Shown here: in pieces, positions 9,864 through 38,100 of the stretch
Position numbering within the stretch: the first letter of the stretch is position 1
Layout: each line of letters starts with the position of its first letter
NCBI GenBank assembly: GCA_041671365.1
Contig: JBAZBP010000001.1
Location: 30,081 to 94,080 of the forward strand
Source of the DNA: Patescibacteria group bacterium
Lineage (GTDB): Bacteria > Patescibacteriota > Patescibacteriia > Patescibacteriales > UBA12465
Direction of reading: 5' to 3'
DNA length: 64,000 bases
Translations under genes and position numbers: made by a program
The notes under the pieces: model-generated
What the model saw: the letters and a program-made list of their open reading frames with translations, nothing else
The model's database searches: none
What the model was told of the DNA's origin: nothing

Positions 9864-9937
9864 GGAGTGGTAGCTCAGTTGGTTAGAGCGCCTGCCTGTC
9901 ACGCAGGAGGTCGCGGGTTCGACCCCCGTCCATTCCG
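9864..9937 (+). tRNA. tRNA-Asp (anticodon GTC), no encoded CCA
   Basis: Acceptor ggagtgg/ccattcc, anticodon stem cctgc/gcagg with loop ctGTCac, T-arm gcggg-ttcgacc-cccgt. Confidence 0.9.
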
Positions 9938-9981
9938 CTAATAAAAATATCCTAACTTTGTTAGGATATTTTTATTATTGT
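9922..9981 (+). repeat. Direct repeat copy 1 (60 bp): tRNA-Asp from mid T-loop to its 3' end, plus the terminator
   Basis: Identical base for base to 10134-10193 by direct comparison of the two strings. Confidence 0.95.
9943..9978. terminator. Bidirectional hairpin terminator (copy 1)
   Basis: 13-bp perfect stem aaaaatatcctaa / ttaggatattttt with loop ctttg. A-run on one side and T-run on the other. Confidence 0.75.
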
Positions 9982-10133
9982 ACGAGTTAGGGGGTCGAAC
10001 AGGTCAGAAGCGAGACACGAGACGAGGCGGAAGCCGAGGCGAGTAGACGAGCGATCGCAAAGTATCCGGGGGATACTTTGCGCTGACCCCGGACAAGTGA
10101 GCTCGCCGCAAAATGGCGGCGAGCGAGCGCGAA
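9982..10133 (-). repeat. GC-rich tRNA-trailer module, copy A (tRNA-Asp associated)
   Basis: 152-nt GC-rich island in AT-rich DNA. It starts with gggggtcgaac (9990-10000), the reverse complement of the tRNA-Asp T-loop/T-stem gttcgaccccc. Perfect hairpins at 10057-10081 and 10102-10123. Shares blocks (gaacaggtcagaagcgag, cgagcg repeats) with copies B-E. Strand is given as the one on which the GTTCGA motif reads forward; this choice is arbitrary. Confidence 0.8.
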
Positions 10134-10193
10134 ACCCCCGTCCATTCCGCTAATAAAAATATCCTAACTTTGTTAGGATATTTTTATTATTGT
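10134..10193 (+). repeat. Direct repeat copy 2 (60 bp): partial tRNA-Asp 3' end plus terminator
   Basis: Identical to 9922-9981. It ends exactly at the base opposite the discriminator of the convergent tRNA-Arg. Confidence 0.95.
10155..10190. terminator. Bidirectional hairpin terminator (copy 2), shared with tRNA-Arg
   Basis: Same 13-bp stem hairpin as 9943-9978. It abuts the 3' end of tRNA-Arg on the minus strand. Confidence 0.75.
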
Positions 10194-10264
10194 GCCTCCA
10201 GGGGGAATCGAACCCTCATCTTGAGTTCCGGAAACTCACGTTCTATCCATTGAACTATGGAGAC
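10193..10264 (-). tRNA. tRNA-Arg (anticodon CCG), no encoded CCA
   Basis: Minus-strand cloverleaf: acceptor gtctcca/tggaggc, anticodon stem tgagt/actca with loop ttCCGga, T-arm gaggg-ttcgatt-ccccc. Confidence 0.85.
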
Positions 10265-10336
10265 TTATTAAGCTGATTATTGAATAATTATTTAATAAAA
10301 TCAAGCGGGGATAAAGAAAATGATTATTAGATTTAA

Positions 10337-10730
10337 TTAAATGTCGTCGTTGTACGATGAATAATTTATAGTCAGTTCCTCACCTTTTTTAATATTTTTT
10401 AACGCGAAAAAGTCATATTCCCGGTCAAACCTAACGTTTGGTTTTTTTGAGTCATTTAGATACCAAGCGACCGTTAAATTATTGAAATTATCCGGACAAC
10501 CATATTTATTGCCTTTAATAACGCAAAAATCATTATATAATTTTTTAATTTCCGGAGTTAATTTTTTAACTACAGATCTATCTAGCCAGATCATTTCCGT
10601 TGTATCGCCTAGAAAAATATTTTTATCTTTAGGAATATTTTTAATAGCAAAAACACCTACCCCGTGTATTTTAGACGGACTTAATTTTGTATAAACGTTG
10701 TTGTGTGGAGATTTTAGATTTTTTTTTCAT
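10337..10730 (-). pseudogene. SET-domain protein gene, frame broken at an A9 run directly after the start codon
   Basis: Track ORF 10337..10594 ends ...GEELTINY (SET C-terminal motif). The same frame continues upstream as KLSPSKIHGVGVFAIKNIPKDKNIF (SET N-terminal strand) with no ATG/GTG/TTG. An ATG at 10730-10728, in an ATGA overlap with the upstream gene stop, is one frame off; A9 lies at 10719-10727. Confidence 0.6.
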
Positions 10731-11800
10731 AAAATCTTTTTTATTTTCTTTAAAACAGAGCGGCCCAACTTATGATTGAAGTTTTCAAAAACTAGAGCTA
10801 AAAAATTATAATCTGATTGATAACCGACTAATTCCATAAAACCGACCCCCTTGATTTTTTTATTTTTTACAGTCCCGCTAATATCTAGTGGTCCTTCCCA
10901 ATAATTAATTGCCCCAAAAACCATTTCTTGATCCCGCAGCATCGCTTTTAGTTTGAGCTTTATTTTTTTATTAGGAATTTCAATCTCCCATTCTAACGGG
11001 TACTTGGCTTTCGTTTTTAAACTTGTAAAAATTTTTTTACTCGGTTTTAAAATAAAATAATTATAATGTTCAGTATTACCTCGCTTATCAATAATATCGA
11101 CTAAATAGTCTCGTTGTTCTCCAATTCGGTATTCAATACACATTATATCTGTGCCATCTGATAATTTTAAAGAAAACCAGGACCAGGCATCGCGGTTATA
11201 GGCAACATCGGCCCACTGATGATCCATCCAGGCGTGGCCGGTTACTTCTAATGGCTTATTATCGATATTAATTGTTCCTTTAACCGCCAAATCAGTTAAA
11301 GAATAATAATAACTTTTTCGCTGGCAGACGTTGATGAATCCTTGACCGCCTTCAAAAAGCGGTTTTTTTCTGGCGCTTAGAGATAAATCTAATTTGGAAT
11401 TTTTTAGATGGAACTTCGAGGCTTTTGTCTCCGCAATTTCACAATTAATATAGCCGCTGGATAAAAGCAAAGGATCAAAATAATTAGCATAAAGCAGGGG
11501 GCGCTTGAAACTATCACCGGACATTATCGAAATATTTTGGATATCTTTATAGGTTTTTTGTTTGGTAATATCGGAAACGACTGAATGCGCAAAATAAATA
11601 TAGGGAGTGTTTAATGTTTTTTCCAAAAGTATTTTTAAGTACGGAATTTTTGCTCTTTTTAAATCCGCTTTAAATAAACAATCCATGAAAGTATAACGTC
11701 GACCGGCCGAATCATTTAAATAACCATTAAAATACCACCATTCAATGATGCTTTTGTGGGATTTTTCGTCCTGAGGTAAATGAATTGGTTTGTAATGCAT
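10727..11800 (-). CDS. AttH/CrtC-like lipocalin-fold protein (hydroxyneurosporene-synthase-like)
   Basis: 357-aa ORF with EWWYFNGYL near the N-terminus, YYYSLTDL...GHAWMDHQW, WSWFSLKLSDG and INYWEG motifs characteristic of the CrtC/AttH family. Confidence 0.65.
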   Translation of the reverse strand: MHYKPIHLPQDEKSHKSIIEWWYFNGYLNDSAGRRYTFMDCLFKADLKRAKIPYLKILLEKTLNTPYIYFAHSVVSDITKQKTYKDIQNISIMSGDSFKRPLLYANYFDPLLLSSGYINCEIAETKASKFHLKNSKLDLSLSARKKPLFEGGQGFINVCQRKSYYYSLTDLAVKGTINIDNKPLEVTGHAWMDHQWADVAYNRDAWSWFSLKLSDGTDIMCIEYRIGEQRDYLVDIIDKRGNTEHYNYFILKPSKKIFTSLKTKAKYPLEWEIEIPNKKIKLKLKAMLRDQEMVFGAINYWEGPLDISGTVKNKKIKGVGFMELVGYQSDYNFLALVFENFNHKLGRSVLKKIKKIL

Positions 11801-11872
11801 ATTTTTATTAGAAAATTATGTCTCTTGTTTTTTGCGCACCGTGGTCATCAATAACAAGCACGATGTTTTTGT

Positions 11873-12442
11873 CTATTTCTTAATTAAATTTTGGAATTCT
11901 TCAATCAACACTGGAGCCTCAGTAAAACCATCTTCTTTAGTGATATGTCCCGCATTTCTGAGTATAACAATTTTTGATCCTAATTCAGTAAATTTCTGTT
12001 TGTTTTCTTTAAAAGCTCCAAAAGGATCATTATCAGAAATTAATAGAGTTGATTTTAAAAGAATCATTTTTATTTTTTCAATGTTGATAGGATTTTCAAT
12101 CCAGGGTTTGGCAATTTTTTCTGTTTCTTCATCTTCAAGATTTTCAAGATTAAACCAGCCAGCAACAAAGAGAGCGCCGCCAACGACGGTGTCGATTGTC
12201 TCTAAGTATCTTAAAATCGTTTGACAGCCAATTGAATGTCCAATGAAATAAGTATTAGAATCGGGAGTACCAACAACTTCAGCGAGTTTCTCAACCCATT
12301 TTTTTATAACAGGAGTATCAATGTCCGGCATGTCTGGTAATAGGATTTGATACCCCAACTTTTCCAATTCTATTTTAAGCCAAGGCCTCCAATCACCTTG
12401 TGCTCCAGCCATCCATTGATGAACAATAATTATTCTTTTCAT
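11873..12442 (-). CDS. Alpha/beta serine hydrolase (YdeN/RBBP9-like)
   Basis: About 189 aa from MKRIIIVHQW (ATG 12442). Nucleophile elbow GHSIG. Size and pattern fit the small Ser_hydrolase family. Confidence 0.65.
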   Translation of the reverse strand: MKRIIIVHQWMAGAQGDWRPWLKIELEKLGYQILLPDMPDIDTPVIKKWVEKLAEVVGTPDSNTYFIGHSIGCQTILRYLETIDTVVGGALFVAGWFNLENLEDEETEKIAKPWIENPINIEKIKMILLKSTLLISDNDPFGAFKENKQKFTELGSKIVILRNAGHITKEDGFTEAPVLIEEFQNLIKK

Positions 12443-12584
12443 ATTTTGTTGCGTCAGTAAGATCGAGCGCACTTTCTCTTTTACATCAGATTATGCACCG
12501 ACCTAAATAGCTCTGATTTTCATGAATATAAATAGACCAGTATTTATAATCTTTTATTAAAGATTTTGAATAATCTTTTTCCAT
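12430..12584 (-). pseudogene. Possible remnant of a HIT-like gene (N-terminal part only, in-frame TGA)
   Basis: The minus-strand reading from ATG 12584 gives MEKDYSKSLIKDYKYWSIYIHENQSYLGRCII, then TGA (12488-12486), then in-frame CKRESALDLTDATKYE. The W..l...Q.YLGRC...KR....L.dLT pattern recalls one HIT subfamily from memory. The reading runs into the hydrolase gene. Confidence 0.3.
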
Positions 12585-12906
12585 AAATAAAATATTTTAT
12601 TTTTTGCTGTTTTTTTACTTCTTATACGCTTATTATATCATACTGTTTCCGGAGTGGGAAAGATTATGGCCACCCAACGACCGAGCCTATTCAGGGATTT
12701 TTATCAAAAGAAATTATAAGAGGGCAAGACTAAAAATGTTTGTATAGTAGTCGTGATGAAAAAAATGATTCAGGTGATCTACGTGATACTAAAAAAATAA
12801 AGCCCCTTTGTGGAAAAAGAAGCTTGATGGCAACATAGATAGGTGGAAATTAATAAATCTAAACTTTATCAAATTTTTCTAAGATTTCTGGCTTAACTCG
12901 ACTAAT

Positions 12907-13554
12907 CTATTTCTCTGCCTCAGATAAAACTTTCTCAAAAATTAAATCGTAGGTGTTGTCCAAAAACTGATGAGACTTCTTAATGGTTCTCCTGTCTAGA
13001 TTGTTCTGAATTACTTTTGTAACAAAACCCATATTCTCGGCTGAGACTATATCTTCTTTGACGCCATCTTGCCAAATCAATAAGCCTTTGTCTTCTATAA
13101 CTCTAAATGCTTCCCTAATCGCTTCATCCACCAATTTTCTAAATTCAATTTTATTTAATTCGATAAATTTTTTAAATTCTTTCTTTCTTGCATCTCTTTT
13201 GTCCGACATAACCTTAATTCTTAATCGCTTAAATTCTTCCGAGGAATCGCCCTGAGAGCCACCCAGAGCAGAAACAAACAAAGCGCCGACGGAATTATCT
13301 TTAATGGGAAACTTTCTGATGTCACCCCTGAAGTCGATCTTTCCCCTCCTGGATGAATCGTGGAGATTAGAGATAAAAATTTTTTTATCCAAATTATTGA
13401 CATTAATTAATTCATAACCTCTAATAGTTGGGCCAGCTGCTTCAATTAACGGACCCTTTAATTCTTTCAGTTTTTCTTCCACATTAAAATTGGCCTCATG
13501 ATAATTTTCGAGAGCTTCTTTGTTTATCTTTGGTGGCATTTCTGCAAAATTCAT
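12907..13554 (-). CDS. Hypothetical protein, weakly class-I methyltransferase-like
   Basis: 215-aa ORF. LIEAAGPT and GDIRKFPIKDNSVGALFVSAL loosely resemble SAM-MTase motifs I and post-II. No firm family assignment. Confidence 0.45.
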   Translation of the reverse strand: MNFAEMPPKINKEALENYHEANFNVEEKLKELKGPLIEAAGPTIRGYELINVNNLDKKIFISNLHDSSRRGKIDFRGDIRKFPIKDNSVGALFVSALGGSQGDSSEEFKRLRIKVMSDKRDARKKEFKKFIELNKIEFRKLVDEAIREAFRVIEDKGLLIWQDGVKEDIVSAENMGFVTKVIQNNLDRRTIKKSHQFLDNTYDLIFEKVLSEAEK

Positions 13555-13587
13555 ATAATTTTATACTAAACATGGAAACAAATTGAA

Positions 13588-13629
13588 TGAGGAGGGGGTG
13601 GCACGCACTGGGAACGGCGTTATCTAGTA
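13588..13629 (-). repeat. tRNA-Ser-3'-end-like motif, copy F1
   Basis: tgaggagggggtggcacgcactgggaacggcgttatctagta aligns at roughly 85 percent by eye with 16602-16640. It lies directly after the stop of the radical SAM gene. Confidence 0.45.
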
Positions 13630-13658
13630 TTTTTATTAAATTAGCCTAGATTTTGATT

Positions 13659-14633
13659 TTAAATCTTTACTTTATTCCAATACTTTTCACGAGGGGGACA
13701 GCTGAAATACTTATTTGCTCTGAACTCTTTAGCTTTATTAGTTTTCCAAATATTAGTCAAAGAATATTTTTTAATGTTTCCTAATAGTACTCTGGAACCA
13801 GGACAGGCATAAACATTACCAAGAATATCGACAAATGAAGCATAATGCCATTGAGTACAAGGAAATCCGCCTATATAAGGAAGGGTGGCATTATATTTTA
13901 TTTTAAACTCTTTTACATCAATTTTTTGAGCCTTCTTATATAGTTCGATTAGGTCCTTTTTCGAAATTTCCCATTTTTTATATTGCAAAGCTCCGCCAGT
14001 AGGAATAAAAGTTTTAAATGATGGAAAAATATTATTTTTCCTACAGAATCTAATCATGTCTAAAATTTCATTCTTATTTTGCCTAACAATAATAGAGTCA
14101 AACCCCAATCTGGTTGGCTTAGATTTATTAAACCCCGTCTTCATTAATATTTGAAAAGCTTCATTCCTTGATTTGGCATACCCCCTTCTGCCGACTAACT
14201 TATCTTGAGTTGTTTCTTCTAATGAATTAAACTTAAGCATTATCGAGCAATTTAAATCATAAAGATTTTTTGCTTTTTCTTCAGTTAATAAGATTCCATT
14301 GGTATAAATTATAGGGATTATTTTTCGACTTGAAATATACTTTATTTGTTCAAAAAAATTTGGATCGGCCAATGGCTCTCCAGCCCCAACAATTTTGATT
14401 GTCTTACATCCTAATTTTTTTGCCTGATCAATAAGTTTCTTCCTTTGTTTTATGGTTAATTCATTACCTAAAACAATGTGCTTTTTGGAATATTCATCGC
14501 GATAGCAATAAGGACAGTTAAGATTGCAGATATTTGATGTTTCTGCATCAAGCATTAACATTAAATTATTCTTTTTTGCTTTTTGAATTTCTTTTTTCCT
14601 GAAATTCCATCCTCTTAACATCGGTATAGTCAT
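13659..14633 (-). CDS. Radical SAM enzyme with C-terminal twitch/SPASM-type cysteine motif
   Basis: CNLNCPYC (CxxxCxxC) near the N-terminus, a GAGEPL glycine-rich SAM motif, and C-terminal C-x12-G-x4-C (CTQWHYASFVDILGNVYAC). Confidence 0.8.
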   Translation of the reverse strand: MTIPMLRGWNFRKKEIQKAKKNNLMLMLDAETSNICNLNCPYCYRDEYSKKHIVLGNELTIKQRKKLIDQAKKLGCKTIKIVGAGEPLADPNFFEQIKYISSRKIIPIIYTNGILLTEEKAKNLYDLNCSIMLKFNSLEETTQDKLVGRRGYAKSRNEAFQILMKTGFNKSKPTRLGFDSIIVRQNKNEILDMIRFCRKNNIFPSFKTFIPTGGALQYKKWEISKKDLIELYKKAQKIDVKEFKIKYNATLPYIGGFPCTQWHYASFVDILGNVYACPGSRVLLGNIKKYSLTNIWKTNKAKEFRANKYFSCPPREKYWNKVKI

Positions 14634-14652
14634 AAATTACAGTTTTATTAAT

Positions 14653-15321
14653 TTATTTTGACGCTTTAAGCTCAGTCCAAAGCATTACCCTGTTTAAAAT
14701 TTTAGAATCAATGATTTTCAACCCAGATTCATAGGCCAATCTTTCCACGTCTTCAGAACTATATGCCTTTGATTTCAATCCGCTCTGAGAATAAAATATC
14801 TCATTTTTCTCGTCAATATGACGAATTTTTATGTCGACAGCCTTATACCAATTTTTTCTATTCTCCAACGTTCCTTTAAGATAGGTTGTAATAACTATGC
14901 TCTTTTCAGTCACCTTATTAAGTTCTTTTAAAACCATAACTTCATCTTCAACATTTCCTAATGTATTCCAGACACAGAGACTAAAATCAAAATATTTTTT
15001 TGAAAAAAATTTATTTAAATTTTTTAGGTCAACATTTTCTATTTTTACATTAGAAAAATTATCTGCAATCTTTATAGATTCTTCTAGCATGAGTCTGGCG
15101 GTATCAACTCCCATAAACTCAGAAACTAACGGAGCTATTTCTGGAATAAGTCGGCCAATACCGACACCGGCCTCTAAAACTCTCTTGGCGCTACGAACCT
15201 TTTCTTTTAATAATTTAGTTTCTTGACGAATATATTCTTGATATTCTAGCGGGTAATACTCCGGGATTAGAGCTTTAAAAGGAAAATTTTTAAAATCTTC
15301 TCCCTCAAAAAAATTGGACAT
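14653..15321 (-). CDS. Class I SAM-dependent methyltransferase
   Basis: Motif I VLEAGVGIGRL. About 222 aa from MSNFFEG (ATG 15321). 19-nt gap to the radical SAM gene. Confidence 0.75.
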   Translation of the reverse strand: MSNFFEGEDFKNFPFKALIPEYYPLEYQEYIRQETKLLKEKVRSAKRVLEAGVGIGRLIPEIAPLVSEFMGVDTARLMLEESIKIADNFSNVKIENVDLKNLNKFFSKKYFDFSLCVWNTLGNVEDEVMVLKELNKVTEKSIVITTYLKGTLENRKNWYKAVDIKIRHIDEKNEIFYSQSGLKSKAYSSEDVERLAYESGLKIIDSKILNRVMLWTELKASK

Positions 15322-15370
15322 ATGATAATTATTATCTATATAATTATACCACAAAAAATCATAAACTAAC

Positions 15371-15555
15371 CGCTAGTTCGCTGTCTCACTTATCCTCTGG
15401 CAAGTGGGTCTTCAGAATTTACTAAAAATCCTTGTATTTACGGGGTTCATGGGTTTATCCGATGCTAAATTGTCTTGGCGTGGAGGGGGGGGCTGCCTGC
15501 CGGCAGGCAAGGATTTCTCGCGCTCGCTCCCGACCTGTTCGAACCCCTTTTCGAT
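15371..15555 (+). repeat. GC-rich tRNA-trailer module, copy C (diverged, no intact tRNA neighbour)
   Basis: Ends ctcgcgctcgctcccgacctgttcgaacccc (GTTCGAACCCC at 15537-15547), like the other copies. Hairpin tgcctg-ccgg-caggca at 15494-15509. Upstream block ctcacttatcc resembles ctcacttgtcc in copy A. The 5' boundary is uncertain. Confidence 0.6.
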
Positions 15556-15559
15556 ATGC

Positions 15560-15593
15560 AAAATTAAAATACCCAATGGGTGTTTTAATTTTC
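15560..15593. terminator. Bidirectional hairpin terminator next to module C
   Basis: Stem aaattaaaataccc / gggtgttttaattt (with G-U pairs), loop aat, flanked by A and T runs. Confidence 0.6.
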
Positions 15594-15677
15594 TACGCGG
15601 AGTGTTATAGATGTTATCAGAACTGAGATGTTTAAAAACATCAGCAAACATTAAAATTTTTCGCTCGCCCGATATAA

Positions 15678-16334
15678 TTAATTTAATTCTAAAAATTGAC
15701 CCTCACTAATAATTTTCACATCACCGTTGTCAACCTTCACCGCTGACATATCATCCAGAACATAAATTTTCTTTTTAATATCCTTGGTTGCGCTTAAAAC
15801 ACCTTCTTTGTTTCTTAGATAAAAATGAGGACTATTATAATGAGGAAGCGCATAAAAATCAACAAAATTAAGCCCAGATAAATTTTCTGTTTTTTCTAAA
15901 TCTTCTTCATATAATTTCTGCAAAATATTTAATATTAAATCCGGACTAACAATCATACTCCCGGCACTAATACCGACATAAACTTTTGTTTTTAAAAATT
16001 CCGGCAACAAAGCAGCCAAACCGGATTTGCTCACCCATTCCATAAGATGAAAAGTGTTTCCACCCTCAAAAAATAAAATATCTGCCTTTTGCAATTGAGG
16101 CTCCCAAATATTTCTATCGACGGCGGAAATATCAACTATGCTTATAGACTGTAAATTTAATTCTTTGAGAGTTAAAAGATCTTTAATCACCCATCGTTTA
16201 TCTCCCTTTTCCACATTGGAAGCGGTGGGAATAAAAGCTAGAGATGTTTCCCTCGGCCTTTTACTGACTAAATCAAAAAGGGCTTTTTTAATAGAATCAT
16301 TGGAAATGCCGGCTGATGTTAATAATAATTTCAT
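15678..16334 (-). CDS. Peptidase E-like / S51 family (type-1 glutamine-amidotransferase-like fold)
   Basis: 218-aa ORF. MKLLLTSAGI start, FFEGGNTFHL and GISAGSMI (nucleophile Ser) motifs typical of dipeptidase E relatives. Confidence 0.7.
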   Translation of the reverse strand: MKLLLTSAGISNDSIKKALFDLVSKRPRETSLAFIPTASNVEKGDKRWVIKDLLTLKELNLQSISIVDISAVDRNIWEPQLQKADILFFEGGNTFHLMEWVSKSGLAALLPEFLKTKVYVGISAGSMIVSPDLILNILQKLYEEDLEKTENLSGLNFVDFYALPHYNSPHFYLRNKEGVLSATKDIKKKIYVLDDMSAVKVDNGDVKIISEGQFLELN

Positions 16335-16423
16335 ACAAAATTAATAAATATTGAATAATATAATTATAGCTAAAATTATCGAAAAAATCAATTTAATCTT
16401 AAATTAGGACCATAATATTTTAC

Positions 16424-16564
16424 CTACGCTCGCCGTCGCTCGCTCATTCGTTGTCCAGAACTTGCGTCCGACCTGCCCCCGGCAGGTCGTCAGACGCTCG
16501 CTGCAATATTCGCCTGCTGGCGAATATTTAGCTCGCTTCAAGTTTGTTCGAATCCCGTCGACGA
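16424..16564 (+). repeat. GC-rich tRNA-trailer module, copy D
   Basis: 109/113 identity between 16444-16556 and copy E 26090-26202 (counted by hand). Perfect hairpins at 16469-16489 and 16505-16528. GTTCGAATCCC at 16546-16556 differs at 1 of 11 positions from the tRNA-Ser T-loop/T-stem gttcaaatccc. Confidence 0.8.
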
Positions 16565-16566
16565 AT

Positions 16567-16601
16567 AAAAAAACAGCAGCATAAAATGCTGCTATTTTTT
16601 T
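16567..16601. terminator. Bidirectional hairpin terminator between module D and motif F2
   Basis: A7 run, stem agcagc / gctgct with loop ataaaat, then a T7 run. Confidence 0.65.
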
Positions 16602-16640
16602 ATGCGGAGAGGGTGGGACGCACTTGGAAAGGTTATCAAG
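16602..16640 (-). repeat. tRNA-Ser-3'-end-like motif, copy F2 (candidate att remnant)
   Basis: Plus-strand tgcggagagggtggga (16603-16619) matches the 3' end of the tRNA-Ser gene (18470-18486) at 16 of 17 positions, in the same orientation. The rest aligns with F1. Confidence 0.55.
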
Positions 16641-16645
16641 TAATC

Positions 16646-17527
16646 CTATTTTGAAAATTTGAATGTTGCCAGTATTCCATTACCAATTGCAATGGGATCA
16701 AAATTCTGGTCCTTGTTGGCTGGGCGCTCCATTATTTGTAACCAGGAAGCATCAAAAAATACTGCGATAATCTGGCCAGCACTATCGCCCTCAAAACCGC
16801 CAATATCAGTTCCCTTGATAGCAAGGAATGATGAACCATCAACAACGATTTGTGATTCCTGCCAATTCTTTAACGATTTTTTATATGAAGCTATTATACT
16901 TTCACGAGTATTACGTTCGTCGTATCTATTTAGATAAAAAAATGAGTTATCACCTCCAATATCTGTCGTATAATATGGAGATTTTGCTATAAGAATATGA
17001 TTTTGAGCCTCCTTCACTTCAAACCCGGAAGGAACTTTAAACGACAGAGTAAAATAAGATGATTTAAATGGGAGCCAATCCGTAGAGAGTTGAGAAACTA
17101 ATATCATTTCTAGATTTTTATTGGTAATTCCTAGCCCTAGATTTCTCATAATATTAAAAGCGTCAGTAGGATTACCTAAAAAATACATCTTTAAATTAAC
17201 CGGATTAACATAATAGGCTTTTCCGCTATCTTCAACTTTTAATAGGATCTTACCTGATAATCTACTAGGGGCTAGTTCATTAAATAAATTAAAATCTTTA
17301 TTGGAAATACCCAGTCCCAATTCACGCATAACTTGAAAAGCATCGGCTGGTCTTCCTAAAAAATATCTCTGAGAATTATTAGGATTAACATACCAAGCTT
17401 CACCACGAGATTCTACTTGCAAGAGAATCCGTCCTTTTAATCGGCTAGATGTATCGCCGGCAAAACTATTATTAAAAGGGAAAAATAATAAGATAGCGGT
17501 TAGGACAAGGAAAATAATTTTTTTCAT
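16646..17527 (-). CDS. Secreted protein with two tandem ~55-aa repeats, unknown function
   Basis: Start at MKKIIFLVLTAILLFFPFNNSFAG (signal peptide, ATG 17527). The repeat SRLKGRILLQVESRGEAWYVNP...GLGISNKDF is followed by SRLSGKILLKVEDSGKAYYVNP...GLGITNKNL. Confidence 0.65.
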   Translation of the reverse strand: MKKIIFLVLTAILLFFPFNNSFAGDTSSRLKGRILLQVESRGEAWYVNPNNSQRYFLGRPADAFQVMRELGLGISNKDFNLFNELAPSRLSGKILLKVEDSGKAYYVNPVNLKMYFLGNPTDAFNIMRNLGLGITNKNLEMILVSQLSTDWLPFKSSYFTLSFKVPSGFEVKEAQNHILIAKSPYYTTDIGGDNSFFYLNRYDERNTRESIIASYKKSLKNWQESQIVVDGSSFLAIKGTDIGGFEGDSAGQIIAVFFDASWLQIMERPANKDQNFDPIAIGNGILATFKFSK

Positions 17528-17558
17528 AATGTTTATGGTATGATATTCTGATTTTGAA

Positions 17559-18242
17559 TTACCTAAATCGAAAACTCTTATAAAATTCTTCAAAATTATT
17601 AGATTTAACGGCCCCATTAGATAACACATAAGTTATCTGATTCCTTTCCACCACCACAATATTAAATTCCCACGTCGGAATATTTTTCTCTAGTTCACTA
17701 TTAGTTATAACTAATAATGTTCCAGCCAAACCATTAATTACCACTGGTAATTTCTTGATTATAGAATGCCCGGCACGATCTTTCTCCGTCAATTCTTGAT
17801 CAGAAATTACCCGCGCCGCAGATCTATTGGTATCAATGTTAATAAATAATTCCCCATCATTATTTGGGTCTTGATTATTTTTTCCAAAAGCTACTCCAGT
17901 CGATGTTGAGGAACCAAATATTTTCCAATCCGCTGGATATTTTACTTCATAACCGTATTTTTCGTTATGATAGGTTTGCCAATCCGTATTAGTTTGATTG
18001 GGAATAATTGAACTATTACTATTTTGATTAGCTGAGTTTGTTTTTATCGCCTCATTTTCTTTTAAAAGCTCACCATTCTGCTTTTTCAAATCTTGAACCT
18101 GGGCATTTAAGTTATTGGCCTGCTCTTGTGATAAAGAAACAGGTTGATTCGACGCCGAATTATCAACCACCGGCTTTTGCGTCAATGAACAGCCTGCTAT
18201 TAGCAGAGCCAAAATTGGAAACAAAATTAAAATCTTTTTCAT
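17559..18242 (-). CDS. Lipoprotein, unknown function
   Basis: Signal plus lipobox MKKILILFPILALLIAGC, a low-complexity Q/N-rich linker, then a globular C-terminal part. Confidence 0.65.
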   Translation of the reverse strand: MKKILILFPILALLIAGCSLTQKPVVDNSASNQPVSLSQEQANNLNAQVQDLKKQNGELLKENEAIKTNSANQNSNSSIIPNQTNTDWQTYHNEKYGYEVKYPADWKIFGSSTSTGVAFGKNNQDPNNDGELFINIDTNRSAARVISDQELTEKDRAGHSIIKKLPVVINGLAGTLLVITNSELEKNIPTWEFNIVVVERNQITYVLSNGAVKSNNFEEFYKSFRFR

Positions 18243-18436
18243 AAAATTACATCAAAATGATTAATCTAATTTAAAATTACCACAAAACCCTCAAAAAATC
18301 AATTTTAGTAAAGGTAAAAAAATATTAGACTAATGACTTTGGAACGCTAATTTTTTCTTAAACATTAAAAAAATACACTAATTTACTCCAGATTATTCGT
18401 AACTCCCTGCAACGCTTTGGAACTATATGGATATCA

Positions 18437-18462
18437 AAAAATAAGGCGTTAACCTTATTTTT
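18437..18462 (-). terminator. Rho-independent terminator of tRNA-Ser
   Basis: 10-bp stem aaaaataagg / ccttattttt with a 6-nt loop, 10 nt past the tRNA 3' end. Confidence 0.65.
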
Positions 18463-18471
18463 GACAATCTG

Positions 18472-18558
18472 CGGAGAGGGAGGGATTTGAACCCTCGATG
18501 CCCTTTCAGGCATACCGGTTTTCGAGACCAGCGCACTAAACCACTATGCGACCTCTCC
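18472..18558 (-). tRNA. tRNA-Ser (anticodon CGA), no encoded CCA
   Basis: Minus-strand cloverleaf: acceptor ggagagg/cctctcc, anticodon stem ctggt/accgg with loop ctCGAaa, long variable arm atgcctgaaagggcat, T-arm gaggg-ttcaaat-ccctc. Confidence 0.9.
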
Positions 18559-25517: not shown

Positions 25518-26047
25518 ATATTTGTGTGTGTTTTCGAGTATAACGGAGAATTTAGTTTTTGCCAAATTACAAAGTTAAATTTAGAAACAAAAAAGAGGCT
25601 CATAAAAGTCTTTTGTTATTATTTATAGACTGTTTTGAGCCTCCATTCCTGAATTTATCAGGATTAATTAAAGGGCATTTGCTAACTTAAATGCGTCGTT
25701 CTTACCAACTTTTAGCAAATTTATTTTATATTTTTTACTAATTTTAGATGAAATCTAGTAAAAGTTTCTTTTTGATTTTTATCAGATTTAATCTTAATTG
25801 ATTAGTTGTGTAATTTGCTCGGTTTAATTTCTTATTAAAATTCTTTGTCACGTTAGCATTGACAATGTTTTTATAAAAGTTAGTTAAAGAACTTATAATT
25901 ATTATAGCATCTAAAATAAATAAGGTCAAATATTGTAGACTTAAATAGATAATATTAAATTATTTATTTAATATTAGTAAAATTATTGAATTTTATATGA
26001 ATGTATTAGTATTTAAGTCCACGCCATTTTAGACTTAAAATTAATAT

Positions 26048-26056
26048 TTATACACA
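26048..26056 (+). promoter_or_regulatory. DnaA-box consensus match (TTATACACA)
   Basis: Fits TTATNCACA exactly. Confidence 0.35.
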
Positions 26057-26067
26057 AAAAACACAGG

Positions 26068-26076
26068 TTATCCACA
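26068..26076 (+). promoter_or_regulatory. DnaA-box perfect consensus (TTATCCACA)
   Basis: Exact match to the canonical 9-mer. Same orientation as the box at 26048 and 20 bp from it. Confidence 0.35.
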
Positions 26077-26085
26077 GATTTTAGT

Positions 26086-26210
26086 ACGGTCATTCGTTGT
26101 TCAGAACTTGCGTCCGACCTGCCCCCGGCAGGTCGTCAGACGCTCGCTGCAATATTCGCCTGCTGGCGAATATCTGGCTCGCTTCAAGTTTGTTCGACTC
26201 CCATTACAAT
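26086..26210 (+). repeat. GC-rich tRNA-trailer module, copy E (tRNA-Cys associated)
   Basis: Near-identical to copy D. Contains gttcgactccca (26192-26203), which is the T-loop/T-stem of the convergent tRNA-Cys in inverted orientation (12/12). Hairpin at 26115-26135. Confidence 0.8.
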
Positions 26211-26216
26211 AAATTT

Positions 26217-26254
26217 CAAACATAAAAGACAGCCGATGCTGTCTTTTATGTTTG
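26217..26254. terminator. Bidirectional hairpin terminator shared by tRNA-Cys and module E
   Basis: caaacataaaagacag-ccgatg-ctgtcttttatgtttg: a long perfect stem that directly abuts the tRNA-Cys 3' end. Confidence 0.7.
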
Positions 26255-26328
26255 AGGCTTGAGTGGGAGTCGAACCCACGAATGGCAGTTTTGCAAACTG
26301 CAGCGTTAGACCACTTCGCCATCAAGCC
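26255..26328 (-). tRNA. tRNA-Cys (anticodon GCA), no encoded CCA
   Basis: Minus-strand cloverleaf: acceptor ggcttga/tcaagcc, anticodon stem gcagt/actgc with loop ttGCAaa, T-arm gtggg-ttcgact-cccac. Only 26 nt downstream of the tsaD stop. Confidence 0.9.
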
Positions 26329-27569: not shown

Positions 27570-27641
27570 GGTCCCTTCGTCTAGTGGTTAGGACGTCAGG
27601 TTTTCATCCTGTTAACAGGGGTTCGATTCCCCTAGGGACTA
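27570..27641 (+). tRNA. tRNA-Glu (anticodon TTC), no encoded CCA
   Basis: Acceptor ggtccct/agggact (G1-U72), anticodon loop ttTTCat, T-arm agggg-ttcgatt-cccct. Closely parallels the E. coli tRNA-Glu layout. Confidence 0.9.
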
Positions 27642-27647
27642 CTAACT

Positions 27648-27679
27648 AAAAAATACTCAGCGTATGTTGAGTATTTTTT
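27648..27679. terminator. Bidirectional hairpin terminator after tRNA-Glu
   Basis: aaaaaatactca-gcgtatgt-tgagtatttttt. Confidence 0.7.
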
Positions 27680-27690
27680 AGTTTATATTC

Positions 27691-27834
27691 AAGGTGGGGA
27701 ATCGAACAGGTCAGAAGCGAGCTTAACCGAAGGCCAGTAGGCCGAGGTGTAGCGAGCGTCGGACGAAGCTCCGGGGGAGCTTCGGACGCTGACCGCGACA
27801 ACGAACGAGCGGACTGGTCCGCGAGTGAGGCGAA
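27691..27834 (-). repeat. GC-rich tRNA-trailer module, copy B (tRNA-Glu associated)
   Basis: Starts with ggggaatcgaac (27696-27707), the reverse complement of the tRNA-Glu gttcgattcccc (12/12), then gaacaggtcagaagcgag as in copy A. Hairpins at 27764-27784 and 27809-27822. Ends ggcgaaa just before the repeated tRNA 3' end. Confidence 0.8.
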
Positions 27835-27851
27835 ATTCCCCTAGGGACTAC
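27835..27851 (+). repeat. 17-bp direct repeat of the tRNA-Glu 3' end (attcccctagggactac)
   Basis: Identical to 27626-27642 inside tRNA-Glu. Flanking bases differ on both sides. Confidence 0.85.
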
Positions 27852-34543: not shown

Positions 34544-35119
34544 TTATTTTTTATTCCGTAACTTTATTTCGTAGGCCATTTGTTCTAATTTTCGCAGATG
34601 GCCGCGCGCTTGATCGTATTTTGTTCGTAGATAGCCGGTTAAATCAAAATCAACTAGCTGTGTCATAATGTCGTCAGCTATTTTTTTTATTTTAGCGACT
34701 TCAGAAAATTTTCCGCTAGCCGCTTGATTAGTGGCAAAACGCACTAATTCGCCAATCAAGTCGCAGATACCCCCCAAGTAGCCTTCATAGTCTAAGTGTA
34801 ATTTTTTTGTCTCGGTAATTTTTTTATTTTTAATGATTAAATAAAAAGTTTTACCTTCCAGATATTCTTCAGCCGCCGCTTTATAAGCGCCTTCTCGCCG
34901 TAGTCGATCAACTCCAAAACGATTTTCTAAAGTCTCTAAAGACTTTTCTATTTCATTTAGTTTGGTTTCGGCGACTTGGAAGTCTTGGCGCTGCAGAGCA
35001 AAAATAGTTTTTTTAGCCTCGAAGAGAATACTGTTGGATGCACTAATAATCTGACGCCGCTCGGATTCGTTAGTTTGATAATTATTTTTTAAATTGCTCA
35101 AAAATTTAGGATCAATCAT
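34544..35119 (-). CDS. Translin-family-like protein
   Basis: 191-aa helical ORF. YLGGICDLIGELVR resembles the translin signature. Assignment is from memory only. Confidence 0.4.
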   Translation of the reverse strand: MIDPKFLSNLKNNYQTNESERRQIISASNSILFEAKKTIFALQRQDFQVAETKLNEIEKSLETLENRFGVDRLRREGAYKAAAEEYLEGKTFYLIIKNKKITETKKLHLDYEGYLGGICDLIGELVRFATNQAASGKFSEVAKIKKIADDIMTQLVDFDLTGYLRTKYDQARGHLRKLEQMAYEIKLRNKK

Positions 35120-35128
35120 AAATTAAAT

Positions 35129-38100
35129 TTAAATTACTCTAAATACTTCATCAATGCTAGTTTCTCCGTTTAACGCTTTTAGAACGCCGTCCTGTAGCAT
35201 AGTGATCATTCCGGTTTTAACAGCGGCAAGTTCAATGTCAAAATCCGTAACATTTTCAGTCTGGATTAATTTACGAATTTCGGAGTCCATAGTAATGGTT
35301 TCGTATAAACCCAGACGGCCCTTATAGCCTATTTGTCCACATTTATCGCAGCCAGATCCGGTATAAAATGTTAACTTATCGGGAATTTTTATTTTAGTAT
35401 TTTTTATGGTCGCTAAAATTTCTTTAACGCGTTCGAAGTCTTCCGGCTTTATCTCTGTTTCTTTTCGGCAAAAGGGGCAGATGCGACGAACCAGGCGTTG
35501 GCCAATAGTAAATTCGATGGCATTAGCCAGAGTCTGTCGATCTAAACCTAAACCGACAAAGCGAGAAATAGCGCCGGCGGCACTATTGGCGTGGATTGTG
35601 GAGAGAACTAAATGTCCGGTTAAAGAAGCTTCAATGGCTATTTTAGCGGTTTCGCTATCGCGGATTTCGCCGATCATCATGATATTAGGATTTTGACGGA
35701 GCAGTGAACGCATAGCCGAAGAAAAAGTATAGCCATGTTCTTCATCAATTTGAGTTTGCATAACGCCCGGAAGCTGATATTCGATTGGGTCTTCAACGGT
35801 AATAATTTTAACATCAGGTTTATTTAATTGATTTAAAATACTGTATAAAGTCGTAGTTTTTCCGCTACCCGTCGGGCCGGTAGTAATAATAATTCCGCGA
35901 GTTTTTTTCATGGCTAAATGCAAAGAATCCAGAGCAACGGAAGTTATGCCTAATTTGTTCATGTCTAAATTAGCGGCCGAGGAAGACAGCAGGCGAATAA
36001 CAATTGTTTCACCGTAGCCGCCGGCGATAATCGATAAACGGCAATCTATTTTGTTGGTCGGCAGATAAATAGCAAAGCGTCCGTCAAAAGTAGCGCGTTT
36101 GATATTGGTGGCTTCACCGGCTAGAATTTTTATTTCCGATAATAAAGGCAAGTAACTTGTTTTTGGTAAACTTAATATATCATGAAGAACACCGTCGATG
36201 CGGAAGCGTATTTTTACGTCCTTTTCCGTCGGTTCAATATGAATATCGCCGGCATCTCTAACAGCCCCCAAGACCATCACTAAATTAATTAATTCGCCGG
36301 TAGGAATTTCTTTAACAGCATCGGCTATTTTAGTAATATCGCTGCCCAGAGTTTCGGCTAATTGTACCTGAGCTGGCGTAATTCTGACGCCTCGTCCGAT
36401 GGTTTGAGAAATAACGACATCATATAAATCATTGATATAATCAAAATTACCGATAACCCTATAAACTTCTTCTAAAGAAGTGACCCCTTCCATAATTTTT
36501 AGAACTCCGTCCTGTAGCATAGTGATCATTCCATTTTCAATCGCCTGTTGCAATATTTTAAAAGAAGGAGCCTGGTCAATGGTTAATTGTTTTATTTTGT
36601 CGTCCAGAGTAAAAACCTCATAGATACCCATTCGTCCTTTATAACCGATAAAATTACAATCTTGGCAACCTTCCCCGACTTTGTAAATTTGCGGCAGTTT
36701 AGCTGGTACTTTCACGTTCGCTTTGGGAGAAATTACCGCCAAGATTTTATTTATTTGGTCAGCCTCTTCCGTGTTTAAGGTGTGCGGCTGACGGCAATGC
36801 GGACAAAGTTTTCTCACTAAGCGTTGGCCGATAATAATATTAATCGAGGGTACTAAAAAATAAGGTTTCACTCCCATATCCATTAAACGAGGAATAACGC
36901 CGGTAGCATCGTTGGTATGCAAAGACGATAATACTAAGTGCCCAGTAAGAGAGGCCTGAACCGATATTTCAGCAGTTTCTAGGTCGCGGATTTCGCCGAC
37001 CATTACGATATTAGGGTCTTGTCTTAAAATAGAGCGTAAACCGTCGGAAAAGGTATAACCGTGTTTTTCATTAACTTGGCTCTGGTTAATTCCCGCCAGT
37101 TGGTATTCAATTGGATCTTCCAGAGTAATTATTTTTGTTCCCGCTTGATTTAATTTATTTAGAATAGCGTATAAAGTAGTCGTTTTACCTGCTCCGGTCG
37201 GTCCTGCCGTAAGAACTAAACCATTAGGTTTGGCTAGTTCGCGGGTTAATATCGGCATGATTTCTGGTCTAATTCCTAAATCGCCGAACCCAAGTGCGGC
37301 CGAGGCCGGATCAAGTATGCGCATAACTACGCTTTCTCCATAAGCGGTTGGCAGGAAAGAACAACGAACATCAATTTTCTTATCTTTTAAATAGATAGTA
37401 TAACGTCCGTCCTGCGGCTGGTTGCTGATGTTAATTTTAACGCGCGCTAAAATTTTTAAGCGAGAAATAATTTTACTCCATTTTTCTCGACTAATGACCG
37501 CTGCCTCTTGCAGGACGCCGTCGATTCTGATTCTGACCGCTACGCCGTTTTCTCCCGCTTCGATATGAATATCGCTGCCGTTAACCTTTAAGGCGGTGGC
37601 CAGCATCAGGGTGACAATATCGGTAATATTGACTTCGTTAATTTTTTGATTGAGATTTTTATAATTACTGATTGCCTCTTGAAACTTTTTTAAATTGTCT
37701 TCATTTATTTCTACGCCGCTTTCATATTTTTTAATTTTTGGTAAAGCCTTGTAGGCTTTTAGAGCGGTCTCTAGGCTTAACTCGGAAATCAGGTAAAGTT
37801 TGGCCGTCGCGAAGTATTGATCGCTTAATCTGGTTACCTCTTCTTTGACTTCGGAACTAGGAGCTAAACAGCCAAAACGGATATTTTTTCCGTCGTAATA
37901 AAAACAAACCAGATTAATCTCTCTAGCTCGTTCTTCCTGGATTGAGACCAGAGCTTCGGGGCTAATAGGAAATCCGGCTAAATTTACATAATCCAGTCCA
38001 AGCTGTTGAGCGGTCTGTTTAGTCTGTTTTTCAATTTCTTTGATTTTTATTTCTGTTTGTTTTATAGCAAAACGACCGGCGACGCTTTCTTCGTCATCGG

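Follow-up and report, generated by a model that had tools for sequence, protein, structure and literature searches.

What are the GC-rich islands that stand beside tRNA genes in an AT-rich Patescibacteria genome, and why do their ends resemble the tRNA next to them? The question arises from a stretch of 64,000 nucleotides (contig JBAZBP010000001.1, positions 30,081 to 94,080; hereafter the window, the whole stretch of DNA analyzed), in which an initial annotation had pointed out five such islands. We find that the islands are copies of one small module, and our best reading is that of an element specific to Patescibacteria which lies beyond the tRNA terminator, is always convergent with the tRNA and bears a two-part address copied from it. 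Observed directly are the family itself, its rule of position and orientation, the two tRNA-matched ends with their fixed lengths, the fold, the presence or absence of the module among syntenic relatives, and near-identical bodies that carry different ends. That the module is a tRNA-addressed, non-autonomous mobile element, moving through a folded single-stranded form and taking its ends from its target, is the explanation we tentatively prefer, at a little under an even chance of being correct.

All five islands (A to E) lie where the initial annotation had placed them, and they constitute one family both by a covariance model, R1, and by a shared 3' block, GCTCGCTYCnnnnnTGTTCGA, which occurs five times in the window against 0.02 expected by chance. 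Scored at every position of the window, R1 matched these same five copies and no others. The motif GTTCRANNCC occurs 12 times, in the five modules and in the seven tRNAs identified by ARAGORN and Rfam, three of which carry an adjacent module. The module body measures 133-142 bp and has ~63% G+C, in a genome of ~35% G+C. Only A and B have kept their full length; the far (5') end is missing from D and E, both truncated, and C has an internal deletion.

Module A (9990-10133, minus strand; identified by alignment and by an R1 match at 9988-10141(-), 53 bits) stands downstream of its target, tRNA-Asp(gtc) (9864-9938, plus strand; ARAGORN, Rfam and sequence), whose GTTCGA occupies 9917-9922 with A58 at 9922. 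Following an 8-nucleotide (nt) filler (9982-9989, as read on the plus strand), the module opens with an inverted copy of tRNA-Asp positions 53-63 (9990-10000), and its body reaches 10133. It is framed by a perfect 60-nt direct repeat on the plus strand, the first copy of which (9922-9981) consists of tRNA-Asp 58-74 and the bidirectional terminator, while the second (10134-10193) includes the direct copy of tRNA-Asp 58-74 (10134-10150) and abuts tRNA-Arg (10192-10264, minus strand); the repeat spans a terminator common to tRNA-Asp and tRNA-Arg. Since the 60-nt repeat is perfect, copy A is likely to be recent. Module B (27696-27834, minus strand; R1 match 27695-27842(-), 177 bits) stands beside tRNA-Glu(ttc) (27570-27642, plus strand), beyond the resident terminator and spacer (27643-27695). 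It begins with an inverted copy of tRNA-Glu 53-64 (27696-27707), has a body reaching 27834 and is followed on the plus strand by a 17-nt direct copy of tRNA-Glu 58-74 (ATTCCCCTAGGGACTAC, 27835-27851), whose first 6-7 nt pair with 27696-27702 to form the closing helix P1. Module E (26090-26203, plus strand; R1 match 26063-26204(+), 74 bits) is 5'-truncated and targets tRNA-Cys(gca) (26254-26328, minus strand; terminator 26216-26255); it ends in GTTCGA (26192-26197) and CTCCCA (26198-26203), the latter being tRNA-Cys 59-64.

The inverted T-arm matches reported by the initial annotation at these three tRNAs are exact, namely 11 of 11 positions for tRNA-Asp (9917-9927 against 9990-10000) and 12 of 12 for both tRNA-Glu and tRNA-Cys. 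Its statement that a terminator stands beside every copy is borne out insofar as a hairpin with an A/T run is visible at all five, although a terminator scan flags those beside D and E only; the scan passed over the hairpins at A and B because their G-C pairs are fewer than its rule demands.

How far does this arrangement extend? The same architecture recurs in many samples, on ~40 independent metagenome contigs, and in two genomes of GTDB. Genomes in GTDB were scanned with a loose pattern of 14 specified bases, for which ~116 of the 118 matches are due to chance and the only genuine loci are L016 and L090; a stricter pattern run over the Joint Genome Institute metagenomes gave 46 loci, ~40 of them genuine. 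The covariance model that the initial annotation had called for was built, recovers the five window copies and gives a total of 50 matches in 43 sources. When read along the strand with GTTCGA and the tRNA-specific bases at its end (...GCTCGCTTCnnnnnTGTTCGA), the module comprises the tRNA 3' end in reverse complement, as far as A58 (positions 74-58), a body of 133-142 nt that starts with T(T/C)CGC and ends with CCTGTTCGA, and GTTCGA with ~5 tRNA-specific bases (tRNA 59-63); next come a spacer of 8-15 nt, the bidirectional terminator and the reverse complement of the complete tRNA. In every one of the 27 copies with an intact neighboring tRNA, the module is convergent with that tRNA (on the opposite strand) and lies 53-65 nt from its 3' end, past the terminator. 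The tRNAs concerned are Gly(tcc, gcc), Ser(gct, tga), Gln, Glu(ttc, ctc), Trp, Cys and Asp. The association with tRNAs proposed from the window thus holds outside it: the wider survey places copies beside tRNA genes or tRNA 3' fragments, and the contrary result, copies mostly away from tRNAs with unmatched termini, was not obtained. The finding is general across many Patescibacteria metagenome contigs and is statistically robust.

What exactly is copied from the tRNA? The proximal end is an inverted copy of tRNA positions 53-63. Of the 27 module-tRNA pairs, drawn from the window and the metagenomes together, 26 agree at positions 59-60 and 22 across the whole of 59-63 (12 tRNA classes); positions 64, 65 and 66 match in 10, 7 and 2 pairs, respectively, which is the level of unrelated sequence. 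Because the match fades from position 64, the copied segment is 59-63, which becomes 53-63 once the invariant GTTCGA is included. On average the matched prefix measures 5.0 nt, compared with 1.9 nt in permuted pairs, and none of 20,000 permutations reached 5.0 (p<5e-5); the match also holds when each tRNA class contributes a single pair. The initial proposal that the tRNA-specific bases co-vary with the neighboring tRNA is therefore upheld, far above chance.

The distal end is a direct copy of tRNA 58-74, exactly 17 nt long in 12 loci and somewhat longer at a few others through chance A/T matches. It ends after C74 even where the gene encodes C75-A76. C74 is encoded in the module-adjacent tRNAs, in the window tRNA-Ser(cga) and in tRNA-Glu and tRNA-Cys of the relatives L232-L235, and is not encoded in the window tRNA-Arg; most of these tRNA genes are without a full CCA, and the tRNA-Gly(gcc) genes encode CCA. 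At orthologous tRNA-Gln, -Gly and -Glu loci from many samples, the 17-nt copy is perfect despite diverged spacers. A general, long target duplication from A58 through the terminator was considered and rejected, as it is present only at copy A and, in diverged form, weakly at L156 and L128; elsewhere, the sequence beyond the 17-mer resembles the terminator no more in cognate pairs (mean score 1.6) than in non-cognate ones (1.2). The two ends have positions 58-63 in common, in opposite orientations, and being thereby complementary they close as helix P1. At each 3' end of the duplex element, the last bases are sense-strand sequence of the tRNA from A58 onward, 17 nt at one end and 5-6 nt at the other. 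In a subgroup beside tRNA-Glu (L129, L133, L138, L152, L119), an extra small GC hairpin, e.g., CGCCTTCGGCG, is present in the spacer to the terminator, and the tRNA-matching bases lie inside the conserved element rather than at its edge.

Between its ends the module has a conserved fold. R1 was derived from a hand-built structure (P1, H1, P2, H2, H3) on a clean seed of 12 sequences, and the fold statistics refer to its 50 matches as aligned by R1. Helix P2 lies inside P1 and around the hairpins H2 and H3, with H1 as an additional hairpin, and invariant CTCGC-type joiners link the helices. First detected by RNAalifold on a plain MAFFT alignment, P2 is a long-range helix which, in the alignment of 35 copies, co-varies as GGTCAG/CTGACC, GGTTGG/CCAACC, GGGTTG/CAACCC and AACTTG/CAAGTT. 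Overall, 90.6% of cells are paired (100% in P2 and 99% in H2), figures that are somewhat inflated by the fitting of the alignment to R1, and 34 of the 40 pairs show compensatory (double) changes. The observed pairing values were attained in none of 500 shuffles, and sliding the 3' partners by 1-3 columns lowers pairing to 29-47%. The covariation statistics exclude chance. Both strands fold better than shuffled sequences (z ~-3). P2 contains 262 Watson-Crick pairs, two G·T and no C·A, and inner H2 contains 387, one and two, respectively, such that G·T and C·A each make up <1% in both helices. Thus, the module shows the compensatory covariation of a structured RNA without the strand-specific tolerance of G·U, and the near absence of wobble pairs is suggestive of pairing at the DNA level, or of a constraint on both strands, rather than of a typical RNA. 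The initial annotation had recognized the proximal end correctly and had missed the 17-nt distal copy, the closing helix, the internal fold and the position of the module beyond a resident terminator.

It could be argued that such a pattern reflects chance similarity or faulty assembly, and some caution is warranted: the sequence comes from a metagenome-assembled genome, and repeats are where assemblies tend to break. Against this stand the ~40 independent contigs and two GTDB genomes, the count of the shared block (5 versus 0.02) and the covariation, and we regard this possibility as virtually negligible.

Is the module a resident of these loci, or does it move? Bodies that are 94-97% identical stand beside tRNA-Glu, -Ser, -Gln and -Cys, each with different ends. 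In other samples, copies next to tRNA-Ser, -Gln and -Glu share 94-96% identity with the body of B. The identity between D and E is 97.2% over a stretch of 108 nt; their flanks are unrelated, and their end bases are ATCCCG and CTCCCA, respectively. Ends that are specific to the target on bodies that are nearly identical point to capture. The initial annotation had offered capture at insertion and a base-pairing function as alternatives; both are viable and probably both are true, given that the bodies are alike with specific ends and that the ends pair in P1. In addition, the gene order tRNA-Glu/TsaD/tRNA-Cys/YchF is preserved in the four relatives nearest by TsaD (72-75% identity), none of which has a module at either tRNA, and a relative with tRNA-Asp is likewise without one.

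These observations bear on the idea that the module is a resident, non-mobile regulatory, processing or antisense RNA linked to the tRNA, which would pair with the T-arm and 3' end, for example in handling read-through, and whose ends would co-evolve with them. Its conserved fold would fit such a role, as would the fact that orthologous tRNA-Gln, -Gly and -Glu loci keep the module and its perfect 17-mer while their spacers diverge; in a read-through transcript, the inverted 53-63 could pair with the T-arm and the 58-74 copy could replace the tRNA 3' end. We nevertheless consider this idea quite improbable. The four closest syntenic relatives do without the module at both tRNAs, only three of the seven window tRNAs have one, C, D, E and L146 are truncated or internally deleted copies, nearly the same body is found at unrelated tRNAs and at unrelated loci of one genome, wobble pairs are scarce and the module sits behind a terminator. 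Retention of the module with a perfect 17-mer, together with signs of mobility, is typical of a selfish element that needs its structure and its ends for propagation.

If the module does insert, what is the inserted block? Two parses yield identical sequence. In parse (i), a unit of [58-74 + terminator + spacer + module] is integrated at 57|58, within the T-loop; in parse (ii), a unit of [inverted 53-63 + body + 58-74] is placed past the resident terminator. At tRNA-Glu, the terminator and spacer on the tRNA side of B (27643-27695) resemble those of the module-free L234 (73% identity, z=7.1; L233, z ~2), and the sequence past the 17-mer of B resembles the terminator of no module-free relative (z<0). 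At tRNA-Cys, a conserved DnaA-box region follows the tRNA in relatives and follows module E in the window. Because the terminator on the tRNA side matches that of module-free relatives, the inserted block would be the inverted 53-63, the body and the 58-74 copy. We therefore favor parse (ii) over parse (i), on the strength of comparisons at few loci, of which the terminator test concerns a single locus and is not decisive.

Parse (i) corresponds to a different origin, in which the module would be the remnant of a miniature integrative, cis-mobilizable element inserted into the T-loop by a trans-acting tyrosine or Xer-like recombinase. The 17 nt would then be the core of the attachment site (att) and the module its attP arm, the inverted T-arm serving to fold single-stranded attP into a mimic of the tRNA-gene duplex, much as the single-stranded attP of CTX phage folds into a mimic of dif. 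Islands inserted by integrases are indeed classically marked by tRNA 3'-end repeats of 16-20 bp, and the repeat described here has sharp limits at 57|58 and 74|75 in 12 loci. Watson-Crick-only covariation would suit a folded DNA site. Moreover, the flank past the 17-nt copy varies among orthologous loci (e.g., L156 versus L121 and L143), units stand in tandem in L016, and in L126 and L122 a gene cassette lies between two near-identical units; arrays of partial tRNAs arising from successive integrations have a precedent in tycheposons (10.1101/2020.12.28.424599). However, the terminator of the module-free tRNA-Glu resembles the one between tRNA and module instead of the flank past the 17-nt copy, the opposite of what this parse predicts. 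The identity between GGCGAA|A and the tRNA GTTCG|A begins at position 58, which leaves no shared T-loop overlap of 6-8 bp, and no integrase was found among the window open reading frames (ORFs) scanned or beside any copy. Finally, bodies that are 94-96% identical with wholly different 17-mers are hard to reconcile with a core carried by the element. Taken together, we judge this origin unlikely, though by no means far-fetched.

Could the ends instead be guides? The module may be transcribed, its body forming the protein-binding scaffold of a structured RNA of the omega, bridge or TIGR type, with the 17-nt segment and the T-loop motif GTTCG (CGAAC on the other strand) directing a protein encoded in trans and with the 53-63 segment addressing the opposite strand; the outcome could be homing, insertion at a fixed offset or regulation. 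In support of such a role, a segment of fixed, guide-like length abuts a conserved scaffold with invariant joiners and co-varying stems, and the genomic copy of the 17-mer adjoins T(T/C)CGC instead of CGAAC and so has no adjacent motif. The insertion would lie ~64-76 bp from A58 (as computed from the 53-65 nt that separate module and tRNA), an offset comparable to that of insertion by guide-directed transposons. The two ends address opposite strands of one site, and dual-strand guides are known from TIGR-Tas systems of phage and parasitic bacteria (PMC12045711). Nonetheless, we regard a guide RNA as distinctly unlikely. The near absence of G·U is unusual for an RNA scaffold, Rfam gave no match, omega-type families included, and no TnpB, IscB, IS110, Tas or Cas gene was detected among the ORFs scanned in the 64-kb window. 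No consistent promoter is apparent upstream by eye, no scan of those upstream sequences having been made, and promoter-like hexamers are common across the window. An active nuclease aimed at the intact neighboring tRNA gene would also be self-destructive.

For the mobile element addressed to tRNAs, which we prefer, each insertion would renew the ends from the target, through templated synthesis on the T-arm region of the tRNA gene, and/or the ends would themselves serve as the guide that chooses the target. Extension of both 3' ends along the antisense strand of the T-arm region would give the observed ends; selection on the element to pair with both strands of the T-arm site could alternatively yield the same ends. 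The element would move as folded single-stranded DNA, a suggestion prompted by pairing that is almost purely Watson-Crick on both strands, and the chemistry would fall to a recombinase or nuclease whose gene lies in another part of the genome or on a helper element. T-arm and insertion point face each other across the terminator hairpin, and the constant position of the latter point could therefore be structural.

Does anything encoded nearby, or any family already described, account for the module? Among the 50 longest of the 55 window ORFs of at least 90 amino acids (the other five, of <160 amino acids, lay outside the scan), none matched a transposase, integrase, reverse transcriptase, Cas, TnpB/IscB or Nop protein, and the neighbors of the modules in the window are housekeeping genes or small accessory enzymes. 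No recurrent mobility gene or integrase was found beside modules in ~340 kb of related loci. Since neither the window scan nor the surroundings of the other copies yielded a mobility gene, the element is presumed to be non-autonomous. In the Rfam search of the window, only the seven tRNAs pass the gathering score, and at E<=10 the regions of modules A and B give only noise matches to microRNA and small-RNA models. BLAST searches of PLSDB plasmids and INPHARED phages returned no similarity, and none of 67 pattern matches in IMG/VR was confirmed by the covariance model, which leaves no evidence for the module in a phage attP. Literature searches for a described equivalent found none. The earlier impression that no described family fits is thus sustained, and the family is previously undescribed and explained by no family tested.

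Several other candidate explanations were tried and rejected. A homing endonuclease as the driver fails because the HNH gene lying between two modules (L126, L122) is non-recurrent and its homologue in L130 has no linkage to a tRNA or module. Reverse transcription of a mature tRNA, in the manner of a primer-binding site, does not agree with a copy that stops after C74 and has no CCA complement, nor with A and L016, which include the trailer. Insertion into the T-loop, with the native antisense strand coming next, is ruled out by the bases following GTTCGA, which are sense positions 59-60 and not the complement of the 5' T-stem. A transfer-messenger RNA, tRNA-like gene, split tRNA or T-loop intron on the module strand would require an acceptor partner strand, which is absent, and the intact tRNAs are uninterrupted. 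Lastly, replication direction does not set the orientation, as copies on one side of a putative origin point both ways; orientation follows the tRNA. As a separate observation, in L151 (~1190-1260) and L153, which represent the same locus, a module-adjacent tRNA-Gln carries a 21-nt hairpin insert (GTTTATGCCCCGAAGGGGTAA) in its T-loop near 59/60, with loss of the ARAGORN call.

A number of points weigh against a mobile element with target-derived ends. Its mobility would be a matter of comparative data only, and no enzyme for movement was identified among the window or module-adjacent ORFs scanned. The distal length is not always 17 nt, because the terminator, too, is duplicated at A and, weakly, at L156 and L128. 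A perfect 17-nt copy at otherwise diverged loci implies selection on the copy, which would also fit a host-beneficial RNA. The tandem units of L016 fit parse (i), and these tandems and the duplicated unit around the HNH cassette (L126, L122) would be easier to explain under parse (i) or by homologous recombination between modules. The metagenome pattern required a GTTCGA end, and copies truncated there would therefore be missed, such that the bias toward 5' truncation is a property of the window copies. Lastly, many metagenome loci are mutually orthologous, and the number of independent insertion events is therefore smaller than the number of loci.

What of the less complete copies in the window? 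Module D (16427-16557, plus strand; R1 match 16412-16558(+), 92 bits) is 5'-truncated and without a distal tRNA copy; its GTTCGA lies at 16546-16551 and its ATCCC(G) at 16552-16557, on the plus strand. Beside it stands a 16-nt 3'-end fragment of a tga-type tRNA-Ser (16604-16619, plus strand; reverse complement GTCCCACCCTCTCCGC), directly downstream of a protein gene, and the identical junction is present in L127. The one mismatch in 11 positions that the initial annotation had noted between D and tRNA-Ser has to be corrected: the source is a tga-type tRNA-Ser with the T-loop GTTCGAATCCCA, as in L162, and the match is 11 of 11. The fragment does not stem from tRNA-Ser(cga) at 18471-18558, whose T-stem differs. 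Module C (15440-15549, plus strand; R1 match, 17 bits, E=0.014) is degenerate and internally deleted, its start ATTTCTCGCGCTCGCT being fused to the 3' end CCCGACCTGTTCGA+ACCCC, the last ~30 nt of the module. Past the terminator beside C lies a decayed tRNA 3'-end-like fragment (15596-15623, plus strand) homologous to the GCGGGGTGTTAGGGACGCTATTCGAAC fragment of L154 and L161. Inside C is a small palindrome, CTGCCTGCCGGCAGGCA (15493-15509), and C and L154 share both the partner fragment and the palindrome.

The GC palindrome CTGCCTGCCGGCAGGCAGG is present inside the tRNA-derived repeat or H1 of several modules (15493-15509 and the upstream parts of L154, L120 and L134) and looks like a second, still smaller insertion element. 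A pseudo-tRNA 3' end recurs directly after some protein genes (16604-16629 and 15596-15623 in the window; L127, L130, L145, L147, L154, L155, L161 and L090). It consists of an A/T-rich run, GTTC(G/C)(G/A)A, 4-5 extra nt, TCCC and the acceptor 3' strand, followed by the terminator and the module, and its junction is conserved between samples (L154 and L161; window D and L127). This 3' end could be what is left of a duplicated tRNA after decay, or a footprint left by events at the T-loop.

The surroundings of the modules offer further observations. From tRNA-Arg to tRNA-Ser(cga) (10265-18470), same-strand genes of accessory type (CrtC-like, serine hydrolase, radical SAM/SPASM, methyltransferase, S51 peptidase, PsbP-like and unknowns) are punctuated by modules C and D and by tRNA fragments, and the region is like a small, tRNA-anchored flexible island. 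In L126 (9323-10057; also in L122), a 135-amino-acid HNH endonuclease (PF01844) and an ORF of 104 amino acids lie between two near-identical module units downstream of tRNA-Gly(gcc); the sister contigs L124 and L150 have a single module unit and no HNH cassette. The tRNA-Cys-ychF spacer (25566-26089) holds a conserved block with a DnaA-box-like TTATCCACA at 26068-26076 and repeated TTAAGTCTA / GTGGACTTAAA, common to L232-L235, and cumulative GC skew turns near 19 kb; the spacer may be a replication origin with module E inserted at its edge. In the closest relative (93% DksA identity), represented by L236-L239, four of the 19 Logan contigs that carry DksA, all four contigs end 127-191 nt upstream of dksA, on the side that in the window holds tRNA-Asp, which begins 200 nt from dksA, and module A. 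These ends suggest an assembly-breaking repeat near the tRNA-Asp locus. Elsewhere in the window, a Translin-family protein (34544-35119; PF01997, E=5e-22) adjoins a protein of 1003 amino acids with two T2SSE secretion-ATPase domains (35129-38140).

Mobile elements of Patescibacteria are poorly known, and the module matters in several respects. If its ends are written from the target, it would be a mobile element that re-programs its own address at each hop and would point to a new enzyme in Patescibacteria; to our knowledge, no described transposon, integron cassette or guide-RNA system works quite like this. If the ends act as guides, a 17-nt segment beside a universal T-loop motif would make a compact, naturally retargeted recognition module. 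In either case, the family explains GC-rich islands and tRNA 3'-end fragments in these reduced genomes. The modules mark the accumulation of accessory genes downstream of tRNAs, as in the window at 10.3-18.5 kb, and may break short-read assemblies, and the covariance model lets annotators mask or track them.

How does the module compare with known systems? It resembles tRNA-integrating elements such as P4-type islands, tycheposons and cis-mobilizable elements in that a direct repeat of the tRNA 3' end flanks the insert (17 nt, positions 58-74, at 12 loci; 60 nt at A), and it shares with them tandem units, partial-tRNA fragments downstream of the tRNA and accessory genes between units (10.1101/2020.12.28.424599). 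It is unlike them in that its unit measures only ~160-215 bp, no integrase was found and the terminator on the tRNA side is a resident one. The extra inverted copy of the T-loop and T-stem, the co-varying fold and the near-identical bodies with different cores set it further apart.

The attC sites of integron cassettes and the attP of CTX are sites of ~60-140 nt that conserve structure over sequence, act as folded single-stranded DNA with mostly Watson-Crick pairing, contain the crossover point in their terminal boxes and, in attC, separate cassettes. The modules share the conservation of structure, the Watson-Crick pairing and the terminal complementarity. Arrays of gene, tRNA fragment, terminator and module, in which they may separate cassettes, are present at 14.6-18.5 kb of the window and in L126. 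In contrast to attC, they lack the RYYYAAC/GTTRRRY boxes, their invariant GTTCGA having C at the first R and their proximal box being GGGnnTCGAAC; their closing helix varies with the neighboring tRNA, their joiner motifs are strongly conserved and their fold is multi-branched. No IntI gene or other integrase was found in the window ORFs scanned.

In the omega RNA of IS200/IS605 elements and the bridge RNA of IS110, a scaffold of ~100-200 nt abuts a guide of ~16-17 nt that is equal or complementary to DNA of its own locus. The modules resemble such elements in having a scaffold that abuts a segment of guide length and in addressing both strands, as TIGR-Tas does (PMC12045711). They differ from omega, bridge and PATE elements in that the matched sequence is ~60 bp away instead of in the immediate flank, and no tnpA, tnpB, iscB or IS110 gene was found in the window scan; unlike guide-bearing elements, they are stand-alone, multi-copy and wobble-poor, with no match in Rfam.

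With miniature inverted-repeat transposable elements (MITEs), repetitive extragenic palindromes and their bacterial interspersed mosaic elements, mitochondrial GC clusters and double-hairpin elements, the modules have in common that they are small, non-coding, multi-copy, intergenic, hairpin-forming and GC-rich in an AT-rich genome, and that truncated copies occur. They possess none of the family-wide terminal inverted repeats of MITEs, the only complementarity being the tRNA-derived 58-63, which differs per copy, and comparison of filled and empty sites at tRNA-Glu and tRNA-Cys revealed no short target-site duplication, the repeat that is present being 58-74, ~50 nt away. They are further distinguished by their strict association with and orientation to tRNAs, their target-dependent ends and the deep covariation between subfamilies. 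The fixed 17-nt repeat is reminiscent of casposons and Cas1, yet it lies away from the insertion point, and no Cas1 or Cas gene was found in the window scan.

Each of these systems is set apart because at least one of its defining features was tested and found to be lacking in the modules. A bolder proposal, which we hold to be doubtful but worth stating, is that the modules represent a new class of nucleic-acid-addressed element, which would recognize the T-loop GTTCGA, copy positions 58-74 and 59-63 into its two 3' ends and insert at a fixed structural offset past the tRNA terminator, combining a rewritable dual-strand address with a putative trans-acting enzyme and a folded single-stranded intermediate.

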